Origin: Eubacteriales bacterium
Lineage (GTDB): Bacteria; Bacillota; Clostridia; Christensenellales; CAG-138
Direction: 5' to 3'
NCBI GenBank assembly: GCA_035446965.1
Contig: DAOTGE010000007.1
Span: forward strand, 1,270-65,269
Length of the DNA stretch: 64,000 nt
Positions 3,509 through 45,214 of the stretch are shown piece after piece. Positions within the stretch are counted from its first letter, which is position 1, and the number at the start of each line of letters is the position of its first letter. Under the pieces are notes generated by a model, which did no database searches, was not told where the DNA came from, and saw nothing but the letters and a program-made list of their open reading frames with translations. The translations under genes and the position numbers were made by a program.

Positions 3509-3533
3509 GAAAAAACCGCCCGGAAAGGGCGGC
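3509..3533 (-). terminator. intrinsic terminator of the MarR/Spt-like/SDR operon
   Basis: Minus strand reads gccgccc-tttcc-gggcgg followed by TTTTTT. Confidence 0.75.
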
Positions 3534-3644: not shown

Positions 3645-4433
3645 TCAGCGATAAATCAGCCCGACCAGCGCGTTGGTCCAGGTTGCGGGCAATACCTTCG
3701 CGAGGAAAACGAAAAGCCGGTAGGAAGCGCCAACCGTGCGAAACGCGCGCGGGCTGCGCTCGGTCGCCGCGTGCAGAATCGCCCTTGCGACCTTTTCCGG
3801 CGGCATGCCGGTTTGCTCGTCGTGCTCCATAACGGCAACGGCGTGTTCGAGCGCTTTGCCGTAAACGTTCTCGCCGGCCGCGCTTTTTCTCCGCGCGGCG
3901 GTGAAGCCGGTCTTCACATCCCCGGGAAGCACGGCGCAGACCTTGACGCCGAAAGGCTTTACTTCGTTTCGCAGCGCCAGCGTCAGCGAATTGACCGCCG
4001 CCTTGGTTGCGGAGTAGAACGACTGAAACGGAATGGCGATCGGCGCGGCGACGGAACTGACGTTCACGATATGCCCGCTTTTCGCCGCCCGCATGGACGG
4101 CAGCACGGCCTGGATGCAGTTGAGCGCGCCGAAGAAATTGACCTCAAGCTGCGCGTGCGCGTCGGCGGGGTCTGTGAACTCCGCCGCGCCGGAAATGCCG
4201 AAACCCGCGTTGTTGACGAGCAGGTCTATTTGCCCCTCTTTCTGCAGGATGTGCTCCACGGCGGCCTGCACCTGCGCAGGGATCGTCACGTCAGCCGTGA
4301 TATGCAGAATCGCGCCGTCGTCCGCTTCCCTGCGGGAAAGCTCGTATACGGTGTAACCGTTTTGCAGCAACAGGTCTGCCGTGGCTTTGCCGATGCCGCT
4401 GCTGCCGCCCGTGATCATGCATACGCGCTTCAC
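3645..4433 (-). CDS. classical short-chain dehydrogenase/reductase (candidate 3-ketosphinganine-type reductase)
   Basis: GTG start after GGGGAGG, overlapping the upstream stop (GTGA). Motifs TGGSSGIGKA, NNAG and YSATKAA (YxxxK). The extra N-terminus of the track ORF overlaps the upstream gene. Confidence 0.85.
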   Translation of the reverse strand: MKRVCMITGGSSGIGKATADLLLQNGYTVYELSRREADDGAILHITADVTIPAQVQAAVEHILQKEGQIDLLVNNAGFGISGAAEFTDPADAHAQLEVNFFGALNCIQAVLPSMRAAKSGHIVNVSSVAAPIAIPFQSFYSATKAAVNSLTLALRNEVKPFGVKVCAVLPGDVKTGFTAARRKSAAGENVYGKALEHAVAVMEHDEQTGMPPEKVARAILHAATERSPRAFRTVGASYRLFVFLAKVLPATWTNALVGLIYR

Positions 4434-5608
4434 AGCGTTTCCTCCCCGAGCACGCCCGCCATGATGTCCATCGCCTCGTCGAGCAGCGGTTCGGTGAGCG
4501 TCGCCATATAGCTCGTGCGCAGCAGGCATTCTGTTGCGGGCGTTGCCGGCGGCAGGACGGGGTTGACGTACACGCCCGCTTCGTAAAGTTTCTTGGCGAT
4601 GACCAGCGTCCGCGTGGCTTCGTACGTATAGATCGGGATGATCGGCACCTCGGTGTACTTATGCGGGATTTCGCGTTCGCTCAGCCCGGACTGCGTATAC
4701 ATGCAGATATCGTGCAGGCGCTTCACGCGCTGGGGTTCCTTTTCAAGCACACGCAGCGCGGCCAGCGCACAGGCGCAGTTGGCCGGCGTCATGGAAGCCG
4801 AGAAAATGAAAGGACGCGAAGTATGCCGCACATATTCGGCCACGACTTCGCTGGAGGCCATATAGCCGCCCAGGCTGGCGAGCGATTTGCTGAACGTGCC
4901 CATGTAGATGTCGACCTCGTCGGCGAGGCCGAAATAGTCCGCCGTGCCGCGGCCGCCGTTGCCGACCACGCCGAGACCGTGCGCGTCGTCCACCATGACC
5001 CGCGCGCCGAACTCCTTTGCCAGCGCGACGATTTCCGGCAGTTTGGCGATGTCGCCGCCCATGCTGAACACGCCGTCGGTGACGATGAGCCGCCCGGCGC
5101 TCTCCGGGATTTTTTCAAGCGTGCGGCGCAGGTCGTCCATGTCGCTGTGCCGGTAGCGCACCATGGTCCCGTAGGAGAGTTTGCAGCCGTCGTAGATGCT
5201 CGCGTGGTTTTCCTTGTCGCAGACCACATAGTCGCTGCGGCCGACCAGCGCGCTGATGATGCCGAGGTTGCTCTGAAAGCCGGTGGAAAACGTCACGACC
5301 GCCTCCTTGTTCAGGAAACGCGCCAACTCGTCTTCAAGCTCCAGGTGCATGCGCAGCGTGCCGTTGAGGAAGCGTGAACCGGAGCAGCCGCTGCCGTAGC
5401 GTTCCAGCGCACGGATGCCGGCCTCGATTACCTCCGGATGGATGGTCAGCCCGAGATAGTTGTTGGAGCCGAGCATGATGCGGCGCTTGCCTTCCATCAT
5501 GACCTCGACGTCCTGTCGGGATTCAAGCGCGTGAAAATACGGATAAAGCCCCGCTTCACGCGCTTCTTTTACCGCGGTGTTCCGATAACATTTTTCAAAC
5601 AGGTCCAT
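4430..5608 (-). CDS. alpha-oxoamine synthase family PLP enzyme, serine palmitoyltransferase-like
   Basis: Start at MDLFEKCY (GGGGGG RBS). Motifs GLYPYF, GSNNYLGL, GSGCSGSRFLNGT, DGVFSMGGD, DDAHGLG, GTFSKSLASLGG (PLP lysine) and NPVLPPATP. The GTFSKS and YPYF signatures fit Spt better than BioF or KBL. Confidence 0.8.
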   Translation of the reverse strand: MDLFEKCYRNTAVKEAREAGLYPYFHALESRQDVEVMMEGKRRIMLGSNNYLGLTIHPEVIEAGIRALERYGSGCSGSRFLNGTLRMHLELEDELARFLNKEAVVTFSTGFQSNLGIISALVGRSDYVVCDKENHASIYDGCKLSYGTMVRYRHSDMDDLRRTLEKIPESAGRLIVTDGVFSMGGDIAKLPEIVALAKEFGARVMVDDAHGLGVVGNGGRGTADYFGLADEVDIYMGTFSKSLASLGGYMASSEVVAEYVRHTSRPFIFSASMTPANCACALAALRVLEKEPQRVKRLHDICMYTQSGLSEREIPHKYTEVPIIPIYTYEATRTLVIAKKLYEAGVYVNPVLPPATPATECLLRTSYMATLTEPLLDEAMDIMAGVLGEETL

Positions 5609-5674
5609 GAAAAACCCCCCAGGTTCTGTCTGCCGCGGAAGCAATGCCGCGGCGGGTCGTTGTGTTCCCGGCCG

Positions 5675-6127
5675 TTATGCGTTTGCGGCGAGGCAGCGGT
5701 TCAGCTTTTGAAAGAGCCGCAGAAACAGGGCGGCCTCCGCTTCTGAAAACGAAGAGAGCGCGGAAGAAACCGCGCCGTCCACGTCCGGAAGCTGCCGTCC
5801 GTAGTAGTCCATGAATTTTTCGGTTACGCAGAGATGCGCTTCCCGGCGGTCGCTGTCGCTGCCGACGCGCTCAAGATATCCTTTTTGCACGAGAGCGGCA
5901 ACCTTGTAGGATGCGTTCGGCTGCGAAATGCCCAGGAAGCCGGCAAACTCGCCAACCGTCGGATGATCGAGCAGATAGATTACCTCTACGGAAAACGCCT
6001 CCGTTGCGCTCAGGCTGCCGGCCTTTTCCTTCAGCTGATTGAAGAGGTTGCGATAGTGCCGCAGGCGGAGGTTTCGGTACAATTCGGACACCGAATCGCC
6101 AAGCAGATTGGATGAAATAAAAACCAC
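5675..6127 (-). CDS. MarR family transcriptional regulator
   Basis: 150-aa winged-helix pattern (GEFAGFLGISQPNASYKVAALVQKGYLER...DRREAHL). GTG start after GGAAAGGG. Confidence 0.85.
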   Translation of the reverse strand: MVFISSNLLGDSVSELYRNLRLRHYRNLFNQLKEKAGSLSATEAFSVEVIYLLDHPTVGEFAGFLGISQPNASYKVAALVQKGYLERVGSDSDRREAHLCVTEKFMDYYGRQLPDVDGAVSSALSSFSEAEAALFLRLFQKLNRCLAANA

Positions 6128-6141
6128 GCCCTTTCCAACGG

Positions 6142-6167
6142 AAATACATAAATATTTTTATGTATTT
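6142..6167. promoter_or_regulatory. inverted repeat, candidate MarR operator
   Basis: aaatacataa-atattt-ttatgtattt: perfect 10-bp arms, 15-40 nt upstream of the marR start. Confidence 0.5.
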
Positions 6168-6239
6168 TAGCAGAAAAAGACGTGGTTTGTCAATATAATT
6201 TGAACGTAGCGTTCAGATTTTACAGGCGTTTTACAATCG

Positions 6240-6791
6240 TTATTCGGGGATTTTCTCCGGTTCGCCAAAGTCCTCGCCAAAGGTTTCCACGCGGAGCTTT
6301 TTAATCTTTTGTTCGACGATCGGCTTGCTGCCGATGCCGGTCGCACAGGATGCGATGGCGTCCACAACGTCCATGCCCTCGACGACCATGCCGAACGCGG
6401 CATAATCCTTGTCGAGATATTCCGCGTCCGCATGCAGGATGAAAAACTGACTGCCAGCGGTGTCGTATGCGCTCGCGGGGTTATAAGGGTTGCCCTGCCG
6501 CGCCATGCTGACCACGCCGCGCTCGTGCGACAGGGGATTATGGAAATTGTTATTGGAAAATTCGCCCTTGATGCGATACCCCGGGCCGCCGGTGCCGGTG
6601 CCGGTCGGGTCGCCGCCCTGAATGACGAAGTTTTTTACCACGCGGTGAAAGACCGTGCCGTCGTAAAAGCCGCTGTTGGCAAGGGAAACGAAGTTTTTGA
6701 CCGTGTTGGGGGCGACGTCCTGATATAATTCCATTTTGATGACGCCGCCGTTGAGCATTTCGATGGTCGCTACGGGTACTTTGGTAACCAA
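6240..6791 (-). CDS. peptidylprolyl isomerase, cyclophilin type
   Basis: Motifs NFVSLANSGFYDGTVFHRV, GGDPTGTGTGGPGY, SMARQG, SQFFI. TTG start chosen because AGGAGG sits 8 nt upstream. An internal ATG (MLNGG) is an alternative start. Confidence 0.85.
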   Translation of the reverse strand: MVTKVPVATIEMLNGGVIKMELYQDVAPNTVKNFVSLANSGFYDGTVFHRVVKNFVIQGGDPTGTGTGGPGYRIKGEFSNNNFHNPLSHERGVVSMARQGNPYNPASAYDTAGSQFFILHADAEYLDKDYAAFGMVVEGMDVVDAIASCATGIGSKPIVEQKIKKLRVETFGEDFGEPEKIPE

Positions 6792-7153
6792 AAAACTGTC
6801 CTCCTGATAAAAATTTTCGGCGCGCCGGTTCGGGGGACAGAATCCACCGTGCCCGCGTGCCGGAACATGCGCTGCCGCACGGACGAAACAGACCGCCATA
6901 CATGCGCTGTTTTTGCCCGGCAGTACCTATTCTCGGCCAAATACGCGCGCTTGTCAATGGACGAAACCTGATTTTTCTATGAATGTTTTTGGAAGGAATT
7001 ACGCACTGTGGCGATATCCATGCTTTCGCTGGCCCGGCACACAGCAAGACGGCGTAATTTTGTGGAATTCCCAAGCGGGGAACGCGGACGGTGTGATACA
7101 ATATTCGATAAAGACGGCCTGTTACGGCAAAACAAAAATTTCGGAGGCTTACA

Positions 7154-8155
7154 ATGGCATACACGGCAAACGACGGGCGTTACGCGGCGATGACCTATCG
7201 CCGCTGCGGGAAGAGCGGGCTGAAGCTCCCGCTGCTTTCACTTGGCCTTTGGCATAATTTCGGCAGCGGCGACGACTACGCGAACATGAAGCGGATGTGC
7301 TTCTGCGCGTTCGATCAGGGCGTGACGCATTTTGACCTTGCGAACAACTACGGTCCGGTGCCCGGCAGCGCCGAAAGCAATTTCGGGCGGATCCTCCGAG
7401 AGGAGCTTTCCGCTTACCGGGACGAGCTTGTCGTCAGCACCAAAGCGGGGTATTACATGTGGCCGGGGCCGTACGGCGACCGCGGCAGCCGCAAATATCT
7501 GCTTTCCAGTCTCGACCAAAGTCTTAAAAGGCTCGGCCTTCCATATGTGGACGTCTTTTATCACCATCGCATGGACCCGGAAACGCCGCTGGAGGAAAGC
7601 ATGCTCGCGCTCGACACGGCGGTCAAGAGTGGGCGCGCGCTGTACGCGGGTATCTCAAATTACGACGCGCAGACCGCTCTGCGCGCGGTATCGATCCTGC
7701 AGGAACTGCACTGCCCGTTTGTGCTCAATCAGGTGCGCTATTCCATTTTCGACCGGCATATCGAGCCGGATGGGCTGCTGGAAGCGGCAAAGGAAGCGGG
7801 ATTCGGGATTATCACGTTCAGCCCGCTTGCGCAGGGACTTCTGACCGGGCGCTATCTCGACGGGATACCGGCGGACAGCCGCATCGGCAAGGGCGGACCA
7901 TTTTTAAAGCGCGAACAGCTGACACAGGCCAGGCTTATGCAGATCCACACGCTCAACGATATCGCCGCCGCGCGCGGACAGACGCTTTCGCAGATGGCGC
8001 TGAGCTGGGTCGTCCGCAGTGACGCCGTTACGAGCGTGCTCATCGGCGCGTCGTCGCCGGCGCAGATCACCGAAAATCTCGGCGTGCTGAACGCGCCGCC
8101 GTTTTCCGAAGAAGAGCTGGCGCAGATCGATGCAATTTCCCGTGAAAACGGATAA
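7154..8155 (+). CDS. aldo/keto reductase (YghZ / glyceraldehyde-3-phosphate reductase-like)
   Basis: 333 aa. Motifs YRRCGKSGLKLPLLSLGLWHNFG, FDLANNYG, HRMDPETP, ISNY. RBS is GGAGG. Confidence 0.85.
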   Translation: MAYTANDGRYAAMTYRRCGKSGLKLPLLSLGLWHNFGSGDDYANMKRMCFCAFDQGVTHFDLANNYGPVPGSAESNFGRILREELSAYRDELVVSTKAGYYMWPGPYGDRGSRKYLLSSLDQSLKRLGLPYVDVFYHHRMDPETPLEESMLALDTAVKSGRALYAGISNYDAQTALRAVSILQELHCPFVLNQVRYSIFDRHIEPDGLLEAAKEAGFGIITFSPLAQGLLTGRYLDGIPADSRIGKGGPFLKREQLTQARLMQIHTLNDIAAARGQTLSQMALSWVVRSDAVTSVLIGASSPAQITENLGVLNAPPFSEEELAQIDAISRENG

Positions 8156-42709: not shown

Positions 42710-43642
42710 TTACAAAATATCGTTGGCCGCCGCGGATTCCTTCAGCTTTTCGAGGAAGAGGCGGTCCTGTTTCGTTTTGCGGTATCCCGCACGGAAAATG
42801 AGCACGTCCCGGCACTCGTTCTGCGGAAGGTCGCAGGGTTTTTGGAGCAGGTTGAAGCAATTCCAAACGCTCTGTGGCTCCGGCGGGACGAGCGAGTATG
42901 CGCCGGGGATGCTGGCGAGCAGTTCCATCTGGCTCGCCCGTTCGAAAACGGAAACAGTCTTTTTGTTTTCCTGCGTCTGCGCCAGCTGCCGCGCCTCCGA
43001 GACGGGCAGGGAAGGCACGGACCAGTCGCCATAGAGGATTTCCGTGAACGGCTCCAGGTCGGCGGCGGCAATCTTCTCTATTCCCGCGAGCGGGTGGCCG
43101 CGGCCGATCAGCACGGCGCGCGGGAACGTCCGGACGACCTCGTAGGTCAGCGAGCGTTCGGCGAATTCACCCAGGAAGTACGGTTCGTACGCGAGCGGGT
43201 ACCGCACGACGCCGAAGCGTGTGATTTCGTTGGAAACGCTCTTGATGGCGCGCATCGGCCCGCTCTCGCGGTAGGAAAAGCAGATGTCTGCATCCGGGCC
43301 GAGCGACGCGGTGAACGCGGCGAACGCGCGGCTGATATAGCCCGCGCGCGGCGCGCAGAGATCGAATTTGAGCCGGTGGTCGTCGGCGGGGCGGTAAAGC
43401 GCCTCCATCTCGGCTACCTGGGAAAGGATGCTGCGCGCATAGCCCAAAAACTCCCGGCCTTTTTCGGTCGGCACGACGCCGCGCGCGGTGCGGTCGAAGA
43501 TTGCGATGCCGACGTCGTCTTCCAGCTCGCGGATGGCCTTGCTCAGGTTCGGCTGATTCATAAAAAGATTTTCGGCGGCTTTGCTGATGGAGCCGGTTTT
43601 CTCCACCTCGACCGCGTATTTTAGCTGCAGCAGGCTGTTCAT
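42710..43642 (-). CDS. LysR family transcriptional regulator
   Basis: N-terminal HTH (LKYAVEVEKTGSISKAAENLFMNQPNLSKAIRELE) plus a substrate-binding domain. Confidence 0.88.
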   Translation of the reverse strand: MNSLLQLKYAVEVEKTGSISKAAENLFMNQPNLSKAIRELEDDVGIAIFDRTARGVVPTEKGREFLGYARSILSQVAEMEALYRPADDHRLKFDLCAPRAGYISRAFAAFTASLGPDADICFSYRESGPMRAIKSVSNEITRFGVVRYPLAYEPYFLGEFAERSLTYEVVRTFPRAVLIGRGHPLAGIEKIAAADLEPFTEILYGDWSVPSLPVSEARQLAQTQENKKTVSVFERASQMELLASIPGAYSLVPPEPQSVWNCFNLLQKPCDLPQNECRDVLIFRAGYRKTKQDRLFLEKLKESAAANDIL

Positions 43643-43820
43643 ATGTGTGTCCTTTCCTGATGAGAGGCCGCCGGCGATGCGGGTTTGCGATCTCGTGTGC
43701 CGTTATAAAAGAAAACCGCCGTTTGTTTCGATATGCACATGGTACCATACCCGGGCGCAAAATTGAAGCGTACCCGGCGGGCGCAAACAGGAAGCGGACG
43801 GCTTTTTCCGATTTGCTCGA

Positions 43821-43849
43821 TTGACCGGGCCGGTTTGCTCGGCTATAAT
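43821..43849 (+). promoter_or_regulatory. sigma-A type promoter of the B12 riboswitch operon
   Basis: TTGACC, 17 nt, TATAAT. Confidence 0.7.
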
Positions 43850-43859
43850 ATCGTTAAAT

Positions 43860-44060
43860 GAATAGCGTGTGCATCTGCGCCTGAAAGAGGCGCCGGCGGA
43901 CAAGCGCCGCCGAGGGAATACGGATGAAATTTCCGGGCTATCCCAGTAACCGTGAAGCCGACGAACGGACAGCGTGCCACTGCTTTAAAAAGCGGGAAGG
44001 CGTCCAAGTAGGATGAAGCCAAGCCGGGAGACCTGTTTGCACATGGACGCTTCTGGGGTG
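43860..44060 (+). promoter_or_regulatory. cobalamin riboswitch
   Basis: GAGGGAAUACGGAUGAAAUUUCCGGGCUAUCCCAGUAACCGUGAAGC, GCCACUGC...GCGGGAAGGC, and the B12 box AAGCCGGGAGACCUG (44021-44035). It lies upstream of a B12-type ABC importer and cobTUSC. Confidence 0.9.
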
Positions 44061-44103
44061 GAGTAAAGCTATGCGGCAAAGGCATGACGCGCGATATGAT
44101 TCG

Positions 44104-44141
44104 TTGCTCCTCTCGATTATGAGTGGAGCAATTTTATTTTC
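44104..44141 (+). terminator. riboswitch expression-platform terminator
   Basis: ttgctcc...ggagcaa stem followed by TTTTATTTT. Confidence 0.6.
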
Positions 44142-44191
44142 GCTCCTTTTCACTATTCATTTGAATATTTTTGAAAGGGGTATTTCATAAA

Positions 44192-45214
44192 ATGAAACAC
44201 CAGAAACTACTTGCAATTCTGCTTGCGCTCGTGCTTGCGTTCGGCGCGCTGTCCGGCTGCGCGGCGGGCACCGAATCCGCCGTGACCGGCGGCGAAGCGC
44301 AGGTCACGGCCGCGGACGCGGCTGAAGAAGCCGCCCAGCCTGCGGAGACGGCTGAAGAAACGGCTGCAGAAGCCGTCAGCTTTACGGACATGGCGGGCCG
44401 CGAAGTCACGCTGGATGCGCCCGCGACCCGCGTGGTCGCGCTCACGGCGGCGGACTGCGAAATCCTGTACGCCATCGGCGCGGGGGACACGCTGGTCGGC
44501 CGCGGCGAATATTGCGACTATCCCGCCGAAGTGGCGGACGTTGCGTCCGTTGAATCCGGCGCGGAAACCAACCTTGAGCAGATTATCGCGCTTCAGCCGC
44601 AGGTGCTGATTATGAGCACTATGGCACAGACCGAAGAGCAGGTCGCCTCTCTTGAGGCGGCGGGCGTGACGGTCGTCGTTTCCGACGCGCAGGACATCGA
44701 GGGCGTATACACCGCCATCGAAATGATCGGTACGCTCACCGGCAAAACCGAAGCCGCCGCCGAAGTGATCGCCTCGATGCAGCAGACGTTTGCCGATCTT
44801 GCGGCGCGTGCTTCCGAACTGGACGGCAAGACGGTCTATTTTGAAGTGTCCCCGCTGGCATACGGCCTCTGGACGGCCGGCAGCGATACGTTTATGGACG
44901 AAGTCGCCGACATGCTGGGCCTGATCAATGTGTTCGGCAATGCGTGCGGCTGGTGTGAAGTGTCCGAAGAACAGGTCATCAGCCTGAACCCGGATATCAT
45001 TGTGACCATCTCCATGTATTACGGCGAAGGCCCGACGCCGGAAGAGGAAATCCTTTCGCGCGCAGGCTGGCAGGACGTTACCGCCGTGAAGGAAGGCGCG
45101 ATCCTGAACCTGCCGGACAACGAGCTCTCCCGCCCCGGCCCGCGTCTTGCGGACGGCGCGCAGGCGCTGTTCGACTTCGTGCTGTCTGTTGTGGAAACGG
45201 AAAATGCCGCGTAA
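44192..45214 (+). CDS. ABC transporter substrate-binding lipoprotein (BtuF/FecB cluster-A type)
   Basis: Lipobox LSGC. Has a RVVALTAADCEILYAIGAGDTLVG-type N-lobe and PGPRLADG near the C-terminus. Confidence 0.8.
   Translation: MKHQKLLAILLALVLAFGALSGCAAGTESAVTGGEAQVTAADAAEEAAQPAETAEETAAEAVSFTDMAGREVTLDAPATRVVALTAADCEILYAIGAGDTLVGRGEYCDYPAEVADVASVESGAETNLEQIIALQPQVLIMSTMAQTEEQVASLEAAGVTVVVSDAQDIEGVYTAIEMIGTLTGKTEAAAEVIASMQQTFADLAARASELDGKTVYFEVSPLAYGLWTAGSDTFMDEVADMLGLINVFGNACGWCEVSEEQVISLNPDIIVTISMYYGEGPTPEEEILSRAGWQDVTAVKEGAILNLPDNELSRPGPRLADGAQALFDFVLSVVETENAA

Follow-up and report, generated by a model that had tools for sequence, protein, structure and literature searches.

A predicted MarR-regulated operon encoding a serine palmitoyltransferase-like synthase and a candidate 3-keto reductase in Clostridia

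In the literature, bacterial sphingolipids are attributed for the most part to diderms, including Bacteroidota and some Proteobacteria, often with location in the outer membrane, and in gut-microbiome work Bacteroides and Prevotella are taken as the microbial source. In the Bacteroidota route, a serine palmitoyltransferase (SPT, or Spt), such as that of Sphingobacterium multivorum (SmSPT) or BT_0870 of Bacteroides thetaiotaomicron, acts together with the reductase BT_0972 (KdsR) (PMC9278070). The proteobacterial or general ceramide pathway consists of Spt, bCerS and CerR, often with AcpR and a synthetase of acyl-ACP (ACP, acyl carrier protein) (PMC9386255; PMC11087976), and sulfonolipids are made by CFAT (SulA/CapB) and a 3-ketocapnine reductase (PMC13692747; PMC11211663). 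Wide distribution of Spt-like genes among bacteria is already suspected, since such genes were inferred for 38 Black Sea phyla (PMC11334938); Firmicutes are not mentioned in the text of that study or in its accessible supplements. A recent preprint on lipids of gut Clostridia names E. coli and B. thetaiotaomicron as the sole organisms in which SPT was detected, and our literature search found no paper on Spt or sphingolipids in Clostridia. Here we describe three adjoining genes, encoding a MarR-family regulator, an alpha-oxoamine synthase (AOS) and a short-chain dehydrogenase/reductase (SDR), at positions 3645–6127 of a 64,000-nucleotide stretch (the window) from the genome of an Eubacteriales bacterium (GCA_035446965.1; contig DAOTGE010000007.1, positions 1,270–65,269, forward strand). 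The genome is 2.73 Mb long and 91% complete.

The interpretation that we favor, and consider probable, is that these genes form an autoregulated marR-spt-kdsR operon for production of sphinganine, which would then probably be converted to dihydroceramide by an unlinked bCerS-family acyltransferase, hereafter referred to as the GNAT. In the first step, the AOS, an enzyme dependent on pyridoxal phosphate (PLP), would condense L-serine with a long-chain acyl thioester (acyl-CoA or acyl-ACP) to yield 3-ketosphinganine. The coupled SDR would then reduce the 3-keto group to give sphinganine, probably with NADPH, and the base would probably be N-acylated into dihydroceramide by the GNAT, a member of the YghO/CC_1154 family encoded on contig C5. 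A MarR dimer bound on a 22-bp palindrome over the −10 hexamer would repress the operon until a ligand, perhaps a lipid, releases it. The preliminary description of this locus had suggested a MarR-controlled Spt-like synthase and 3-keto reductase for synthesis of a sphingoid base or related amino-lipid, and that hypothesis is supported by the protein families, the tree, the pairing of the two genes and the operator described below.

The AOS gene (4430–5608, minus strand) encodes a 392-aa protein with the predicted catalytic Lys241 in the sequence GTFSKS. Its top NCBIfam model was NF047600 (SerpalmtaseCFB, the Bacteroidota-type serine palmitoyltransferase) with 526.5 bits, a margin of 140 bits over the next Spt model, that of betaproteobacteria (386 bits), and of more than 145 bits over the BioF/Kbl-family model TIGR01825 (381 bits), BioF (370 bits) and Kbl (365 bits); the ALAS and CqsA models gave 239 and 195 bits, respectively. 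Among solved structures, SmSPT (PDB 3A2B/8GUH) was the closest, with 422 bits and a gapless end-to-end alignment, followed by sphingomonad SPTs (about 285–291 bits), Kbl (about 245), two CFATs (about 220) and CqsA (about 108). The identity to Spt of Bacteroides finegoldii, Parabacteroides distasonis and Prevotella was 47–50%. As in the Bacteroidota route, the enzyme is of the soluble, stand-alone type with no ACP gene alongside, the active site is of Spt type with GTFSKS, and the best-scoring families of both AOS and SDR are those of that route.

For the active site, the roles of residues follow the SmSPT structures (PMC10196870) and a comparison of SPT with CFAT (PMC13692747), and SmSPT numbering is used for them. 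Fifteen of the 16 tabulated SPT residues are kept in the AOS, and N52, Y54, G80, S81, N117, H138, S185, D210, A212, H213, T241, S243, K244 and the C-terminal Arg are present in all 24 Clostridia sequences compared. The sole side-chain change is from Ala79 to Ser, again in all 24 sequences; M271, whose contact with the substrate is by the main chain, is replaced by Ile in the AOS clade, as it is in Bacteroidales Spt. By the same comparison, Kbl departs at four positions (G80S, S81V, A212S and S243G) and BioF at three (A79G, F83H and S243G).

The change at position 79 bears on the main rival explanation, in which another amino acid such as alanine or glycine is joined to a long acyl chain, giving 1-deoxy-sphingoid or non-canonical amino-lipids. 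This position is Ala in SmSPT and Bacteroidales Spt and corresponds to Cys133 of human SPTLC1, and it contacts the substrate side chain through water (PMC10196870); the same paper reports use of Ala and Gly by SPTs at low efficiency. In addition, the score of the AOS stays under the Spt equivalog cut-off, and 1-deoxysphingolipids are abundant in anoxic waters (PMC11334938). Against these points, the remaining residues around the PLP-serine adduct are all kept, and Ser or Thr at position 79 is also found in Spt-like genes that adjoin bCerS- and CerR-like genes, namely the validated E. coli SPT and those of Aureispira and Rubrobacter. The variant of this explanation with cysteate as substrate, leading to sulfonolipids, is unlikely because the CFAT structures score about half of SPT. 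The contact by Asn117, kept in the AOS, is specific to SPT and absent from CFAT (PMC13692747), and the likeness to the CFAT system is that of an AOS condensation followed by SDR reduction to a long-chain base. Altogether, we regard a substrate other than serine as unlikely.

The AOS was then placed in a careful maximum-likelihood tree of 51 sequences, composed of ten Clostridia sequences including the query, named references and representatives at 50% identity. The references included five Kbl and two BioF, and ALAS, CqsA and CFAT were judged by scores only. The Clostridia AOS formed one clade (support 100/99) within an Spt-like clade of 40 rows (93/92), which also contains Bacteroidales Spt, the E. 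coli SPT with demonstrated activity (PMC9386255) and the genes of Rubrobacter and Aureispira, the latter two being flanked by genes for a GNAT of about 380 aa and an epimerase-type (CerR-like) reductase. The Clostridia sequences are thus a well-supported clade separate from the Bacteroidota enzymes, in addition to their limited identity to Bacteroidales Spt and their scores below equivalog cut-offs. The five Kbl formed a clade of their own (100/99) outside the Spt-like clade, and BioF was also located outside.

These results bear directly on the possibility of a housekeeping role for the AOS, as a paralogue of Kbl or BioF, with the SDR as an unrelated neighbor. Public annotations often label close homologues as '8-amino-7-oxononanoate synthase', and the BioF and Kbl models score substantially (365–370 bits), but both scores are under the respective cut-offs of 426 and 460 bits, and the diagnostic active-site positions are unlike those of either enzyme. 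When the Clostridia AOS were forced together with Kbl or with BioF, the log-likelihood decreased by 92 and 148 units, respectively, and both groupings were rejected by the approximately unbiased (AU) test (p = 0.0031 and p = 0.0004). The genome carries a second AOS on contig C104, which matches the Kbl equivalog model above its cut-off with 656 bits and lies directly after the L-threonine dehydrogenase gene. For the biotin pathway, bioB was not found in this 91% complete genome, nor was a true bioA, the best bioA-like match being 206 bits against a cut-off of 405 bits. Since the coupling to the SDR gene is also kept in most related loci, as described below, assignment to either Kbl or BioF was rejected, and the housekeeping explanation is effectively excluded. 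The preliminary description had preferred Spt over BioF and Kbl, and this preference agrees with the clade placement, the AU tests and the top matches to NF047600 and SmSPT; the contrary outcome that it had named, clustering with BioF or Kbl in a genome devoid of another bioF or kbl, differs from what was observed, as the genome has its own Kbl besides the Spt-like gene. The tdh-kbl pair (contig C104, positions 1–1832) is kept across the genus beside the Spt-like gene.

The SDR gene (3645–4433, minus strand) starts with GTG and encodes a 262-aa protein with the cofactor motif TGGSSGIG, NNAG and YSATK, and the match to PF00106 with 165.6 bits identifies it as a classical SDR. Its best NCBIfam model was NF049977, that of Bacteroides KdsR (BT_0972), with 248 bits over model positions 3–264 of 267, and the next model, PRK06179, gave 215 bits, 33 bits below KdsR. 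KdsR was also the top model for all six diverse partner SDRs of AOS orthologues in other Clostridia, with 184–255 bits. The proposal that the SDR is a candidate 3-keto reductase is therefore upheld by the top family both here and in the six partners. As in the Bacteroidota route, the reductase is a classical SDR of about 260 aa and not of the epimerase type. An Arg-Arg pair follows strand beta-2, a feature that in SDRs generally fits use of NADPH; NADPH is thus probably the cofactor.

Conservation of the gene pair was examined in 80 related loci, the best of 199 confirmed stretches with AOS relatives in species-representative genomes. An SDR homologue was located directly downstream of the AOS gene in 74 of them, its start being a few to about 100 nt past the AOS stop. 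The preliminary description had called for a survey of this neighborhood, and the pair proved to be conserved across Clostridia. As the margins between SDR models are modest, the functional assignment of the SDR rests mainly on this conserved coupling to the AOS. Clustering of open reading frames (ORFs) and a scan of recurrent ORFs in the 80 loci found no other conserved neighbors around the AOS gene. The ORFs that recurred were all unrelated (POR, ABC ATPase, ProC, FocA, ThiF, a DedA/VTT protein and PpiC), and simple ORF picking gave spurious antisense ORFs in GC-rich loci. In Bacteroides, the spt and reductase genes are apart, the locus tags BT_0870 and BT_0972 being about 100 genes from each other, unlike the coupled genes found here; in the Bacteroides and Parabacteroides records examined, spt adjoins a gene of the diacylglycerol-kinase family, which is absent from the present locus.

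Six of the 80 loci (L050, L060, L064, L088, L093 and L096) carried the AOS gene with no SDR homologue within the fetched locus, and in L050 the AOS gene is followed by 2-oxoacid:ferredoxin oxidoreductase genes. In five Oscillospiraceae-type loci (L056, L087 and three others), a gene for a DedA/VTT membrane protein is located about 200 nt upstream of the AOS gene in divergent orientation. DedA proteins have been implicated in lipid flipping, and this divergent gene could be a lead to transport.

For the third enzyme of the predicted pathway, the genome was searched with the Rubrobacter GNAT encoded between the Spt-like and reductase genes, and a full-length match (E = 9e-43) was obtained for a 373-aa GNAT at positions 43092–44210 (plus strand) of contig C5. 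The protein is 27% identical to E. coli YghO over residues 1–372 (E = 4e-47) and 26% identical to the Spt-adjacent GNAT of Aureispira. The gene yghO is the E. coli counterpart of Caulobacter CC_1154, an N-acyltransferase needed for dihydroceramide synthesis (PMC9386255), and CC_1154 has been named bCerS (PMC11087976). By full-length homology to YghO and to the Rubrobacter and Aureispira proteins, the C5 protein is predicted to be a member of the YghO/CC_1154 family of bacterial ceramide synthases, proteins of about 380 aa with a C-terminal GNAT domain, the relation to CC_1154 being drawn through yghO (PMC9386255). Its gene is flanked by those for a DUF4349 protein and a DUF2232 membrane protein. 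Among other candidates in the genome, no match was obtained for PF13444 (OlsB-type acyltransferase), and PF13480 was represented by just one small generic GNAT of 146 aa. The ceramide-synthase-like GNAT itself has no NCBIfam model.

The GNAT was present in 39 of 40 genomes of the genus. In an even draw of 300 Clostridia genomes, 26 of 41 AOS-positive genomes and 17 of about 259 AOS-negative ones carried the GNAT; counted by genus, it occurred in 14 of 24 AOS-positive genera and 9 of 154 others. Since related genomes are not independent observations, these counts, far above chance as they are, are supportive and do not amount to proof. The coexistence of an Spt-like AOS and a full-length YghO/CC_1154-family GNAT in one genome, and their co-occurrence in the sampled Clostridia, resemble the proteobacterial pathway. 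Unlike that pathway, no close CerR-type reductase was found (best matches in the genome, 32–51 bits), no ACP or ligase gene adjoins spt, and the GNAT gene is unlinked. The KdsR-like SDR is thus the only candidate reductase, which suggests an order of condensation, reduction and N-acylation, the reduction preceding N-acylation. Some genomes of the genus carry a second GNAT paralogue with about 27% identity, and in one genome (G031), from another family of this order, two copies of the GNAT gene lie in tandem.

Regulation of the operon was analyzed next to its promoter. The genes for MarR, AOS and SDR are all codirectional on the minus strand and are bracketed by a near-consensus promoter and an intrinsic terminator. 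The sigma-70-type promoter (6164–6193, minus strand) consists of TTGACA, an 18-nt spacer and an extended −10 element TG-TAAAAT, in which TG precedes the −10 hexamer, and agrees with the consensus at 11 of 12 positions. A candidate MarR operator, with the core palindrome ATACATAAA-N4-TTTATGTAT (6144–6165) inside a wider palindrome (6142–6167), overlaps both the −10 hexamer and the expected start of transcription. The marR gene itself (5675–6127, minus strand), the first gene of the operon, starts with GTG and encodes a winged-helix protein of 150 aa, with matches above cut-offs to PF12802 (35.7 bits) and PF01047 (33.8 bits). Matches to named regulators were weak (MprA, 33 bits; FabT, 28 bits). 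The AOS gene has marR directly upstream in each of the 29 genus-level loci and is also preceded by it in four loci that are more distant, and the 9-4-9 palindrome is kept with 0–2 mismatches in 29 of the 29 genus-level loci. In one of these (L031), both arms carry a symmetric change, ATACTTAAA...TTTAAGTAT, a pattern that recognition by a dimer would predict.

The palindrome is the only site with two or fewer mismatches in the 2.73-Mb genome, and the MarR protein thus appears to be dedicated to this operon. As the palindrome covers the −10 hexamer, repression and autoregulation are predicted, and MarR is probably the autorepressor of the operon through this putative operator. The arrangement is like that of MarR autorepressors such as MprA and FabT-like proteins, with a winged-helix protein encoded by the first gene of its presumed target operon and a palindrome over the −10 element; it is unlike the named regulators in the weakness of the matches and in the linkage of MarR, which is confined to this genus and a few lineages besides.

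A dedicated MarR with a single site is more usual for an accessory or inducible function than for bulk synthesis of membrane lipid, and this raises another possibility: the product may be a small diffusible amino-ketone or amino-alcohol, with an acyl chain of short or medium length, used as a signal or secondary metabolite. The AOS would then act in the manner of CqsA-type autoinducer synthases, with the GNAT unrelated. Such a product would fit with the unlinked position of the GNAT gene, its absence from some carrier families and the lack of adjoining acyl-activation genes. We consider this explanation improbable, as the AOS score for CqsA is 195 bits against 526 bits for Spt, the CqsA structures give about 108 bits, and the nearest characterized relatives all take long acyl chains. 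Moreover, the gene pair is vertically conserved over many Clostridia families, unlike typical clusters for secondary metabolites.

The remaining features of the operon agree with the preliminary description, which had placed three codirectional minus-strand genes between the palindrome and a terminator; these elements were all found at or near the positions given there, the palindrome in addition being conserved in the genus and unique in the genome. The motifs that it quoted, GLYPYF, GSGCSGSRFLNGT, GTFSKSLASLGG and NPVLPPATP for the AOS and TGGSSGIGKA, NNAG and YSATKAA for the SDR, were all located in the translations. The GTG start of the SDR gene overlaps the AOS stop as GTGA and is preceded, at a distance of 6 nt, by a GGAGG-like ribosome-binding site; translational coupling of the two genes, which the description had proposed from this overlap, is accordingly what the DNA predicts. 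The intrinsic terminator (3509–3533, minus strand) was detected as a stem-loop at 3533–3515, with a 7-bp GC-rich stem and a 5-nt loop, followed by a T run. The 66-nt spacer between marR and the AOS gene contains a GC-rich hairpin of 11 pairs (5628–5657; assigned to the minus strand, the stem-loop being detected on the plus strand). As it has no T run on the gene strand, this hairpin is not read as a terminator and the three genes are most likely transcribed together; the hairpin could be an element for processing, stability or attenuation. The operon is flanked by the genes for a cyclophilin and a DUF4405 membrane protein, and no gene for ACP, N-acyltransferase or biotin synthesis adjoins it, as had been noted before.

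Several observations weigh against the model of a sphinganine operon followed by N-acylation. With respect to the AOS, the score of 526 bits is below the NF047600 cut-off of 640 bits, so that the protein is not an equivalog of that model, and Ser instead of Ala is found at residue 79, a position with influence on the choice of amino acid by human SPT. The support of the Spt-like clade is good and not maximal (93/92), and its inner branching is poorly supported. A preceding AU test, on which we do not rely, used a quick and insufficiently searched tree of 99 rows with two Kbl, where the constrained tree outscored the free tree (p = 0.60). The function given to the AOS clade is predicted from sequence. 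For the SDR, the score of 248 bits is below the KdsR cut-off of 400 bits, the margin of KdsR over generic oxidoreductases of the PRK06179 type is just 12–34 bits, and unrelated SDRs on plasmids, which are generic oxidoreductases, are 38–40% identical to it in a tblastn search against plasmid records; no annotated KdsR was among the matches in those records. With respect to the GNAT, its gene is not clustered with spt, an arrangement that is frequent though not universal in this family, being on another contig here and 25–50 kb from the AOS gene in relatives with long contigs, and its co-occurrence with the AOS is imperfect, as some families have the gene pair without GNAT and others the reverse, and kin are not independent. 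Genes for acyl activation, such as a dedicated ACP or acyl ligase, were not found adjoining the operon.

The distribution of the AOS was examined at several levels. Orthologues were detected in all 24 genus genomes searched, with 79–94% identity where the gene is complete, and in 42 of the 300 evenly sampled Clostridia genomes (E ≤ 1e-100), about one in seven, concentrated in a few families. The best 80 AOS relatives showed 70–93% identity and were all from Clostridia except for one mislabelled record. The carriers are metagenome-assembled genomes labelled Christensenellaceae or Oscillospiraceae, Oscillibacter, Faecousia, Papillibacter, and rumen and gut bins, and include one cultured isolate, 'Oscillospiraceae bacterium WX1' (L047). 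DNA near-identical to the operon was found in metagenomes of activated sludge, wastewater and anaerobic digesters from 13 studies. Neither BamA nor LpxC was found in the genome, which fits a monoderm host; the single-membrane host and the MarR-controlled operon both set this system apart from that of Bacteroidota.

From these findings together, it is quite possible, and we propose tentatively, that monoderm Clostridia of wastewater digesters, guts and rumens make genuine dihydroceramide-type sphingolipids. They would do so by a hybrid of Bacteroidota-like Spt, a coupled KdsR-type reductase and a proteobacterial-type bCerS/YghO acyltransferase, switched in this genus by a dedicated and perhaps lipid-sensing MarR. 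If this is the case, sphingolipids would not be bound to outer membranes, their role in a single-membrane cell should be reconsidered, and Clostridia would be a source of sphingoid lipids that has been overlooked in communities of anaerobes. Should the carriers make sphinganine or ceramides, the sources to which microbial sphingolipids are assigned in lipidomes of the gut, the rumen and digesters would need revision. The model is directly testable by use of the cultured carrier, a published co-expression assay in E. coli and, within the genus, the simple handle of one repressor and one operator. Chemical confirmation would surprise specialists, the proposal being at present wholly deduced from sequence.

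Some related arrangements were encountered outside the main group. The record CAVDXW010000006.1 (L074) bears the title 'Bacteroidaceae bacterium' and is probably a mislabelled or contaminated bin; its AOS and SDR, encoded as a pair, are 71% and 52% identical to those of Clostridia. On a plasmid of Priestia megaterium, of the Bacillus group (CP109762.1, positions 4723–7215), an AOS of the Spt-like clade with 49% identity to the query was found without an SDR gene, in divergent orientation from genes for a methyltransferase, a membrane acyltransferase and YvaD. Among metagenome representatives (P0131, P0146, P0150, P0157 and P0171), Spt-like AOS were fused to DUF1571, STAS or thioesterase-ACP-luciferase-like modules, and others in the same set carried an N-terminal FemAB/Acetyltransf_6 domain, one of them with PilZ. 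By domain composition, these GNAT-AOS fusions look like enzymes that combine N-acyltransferase and Spt in a single polypeptide.

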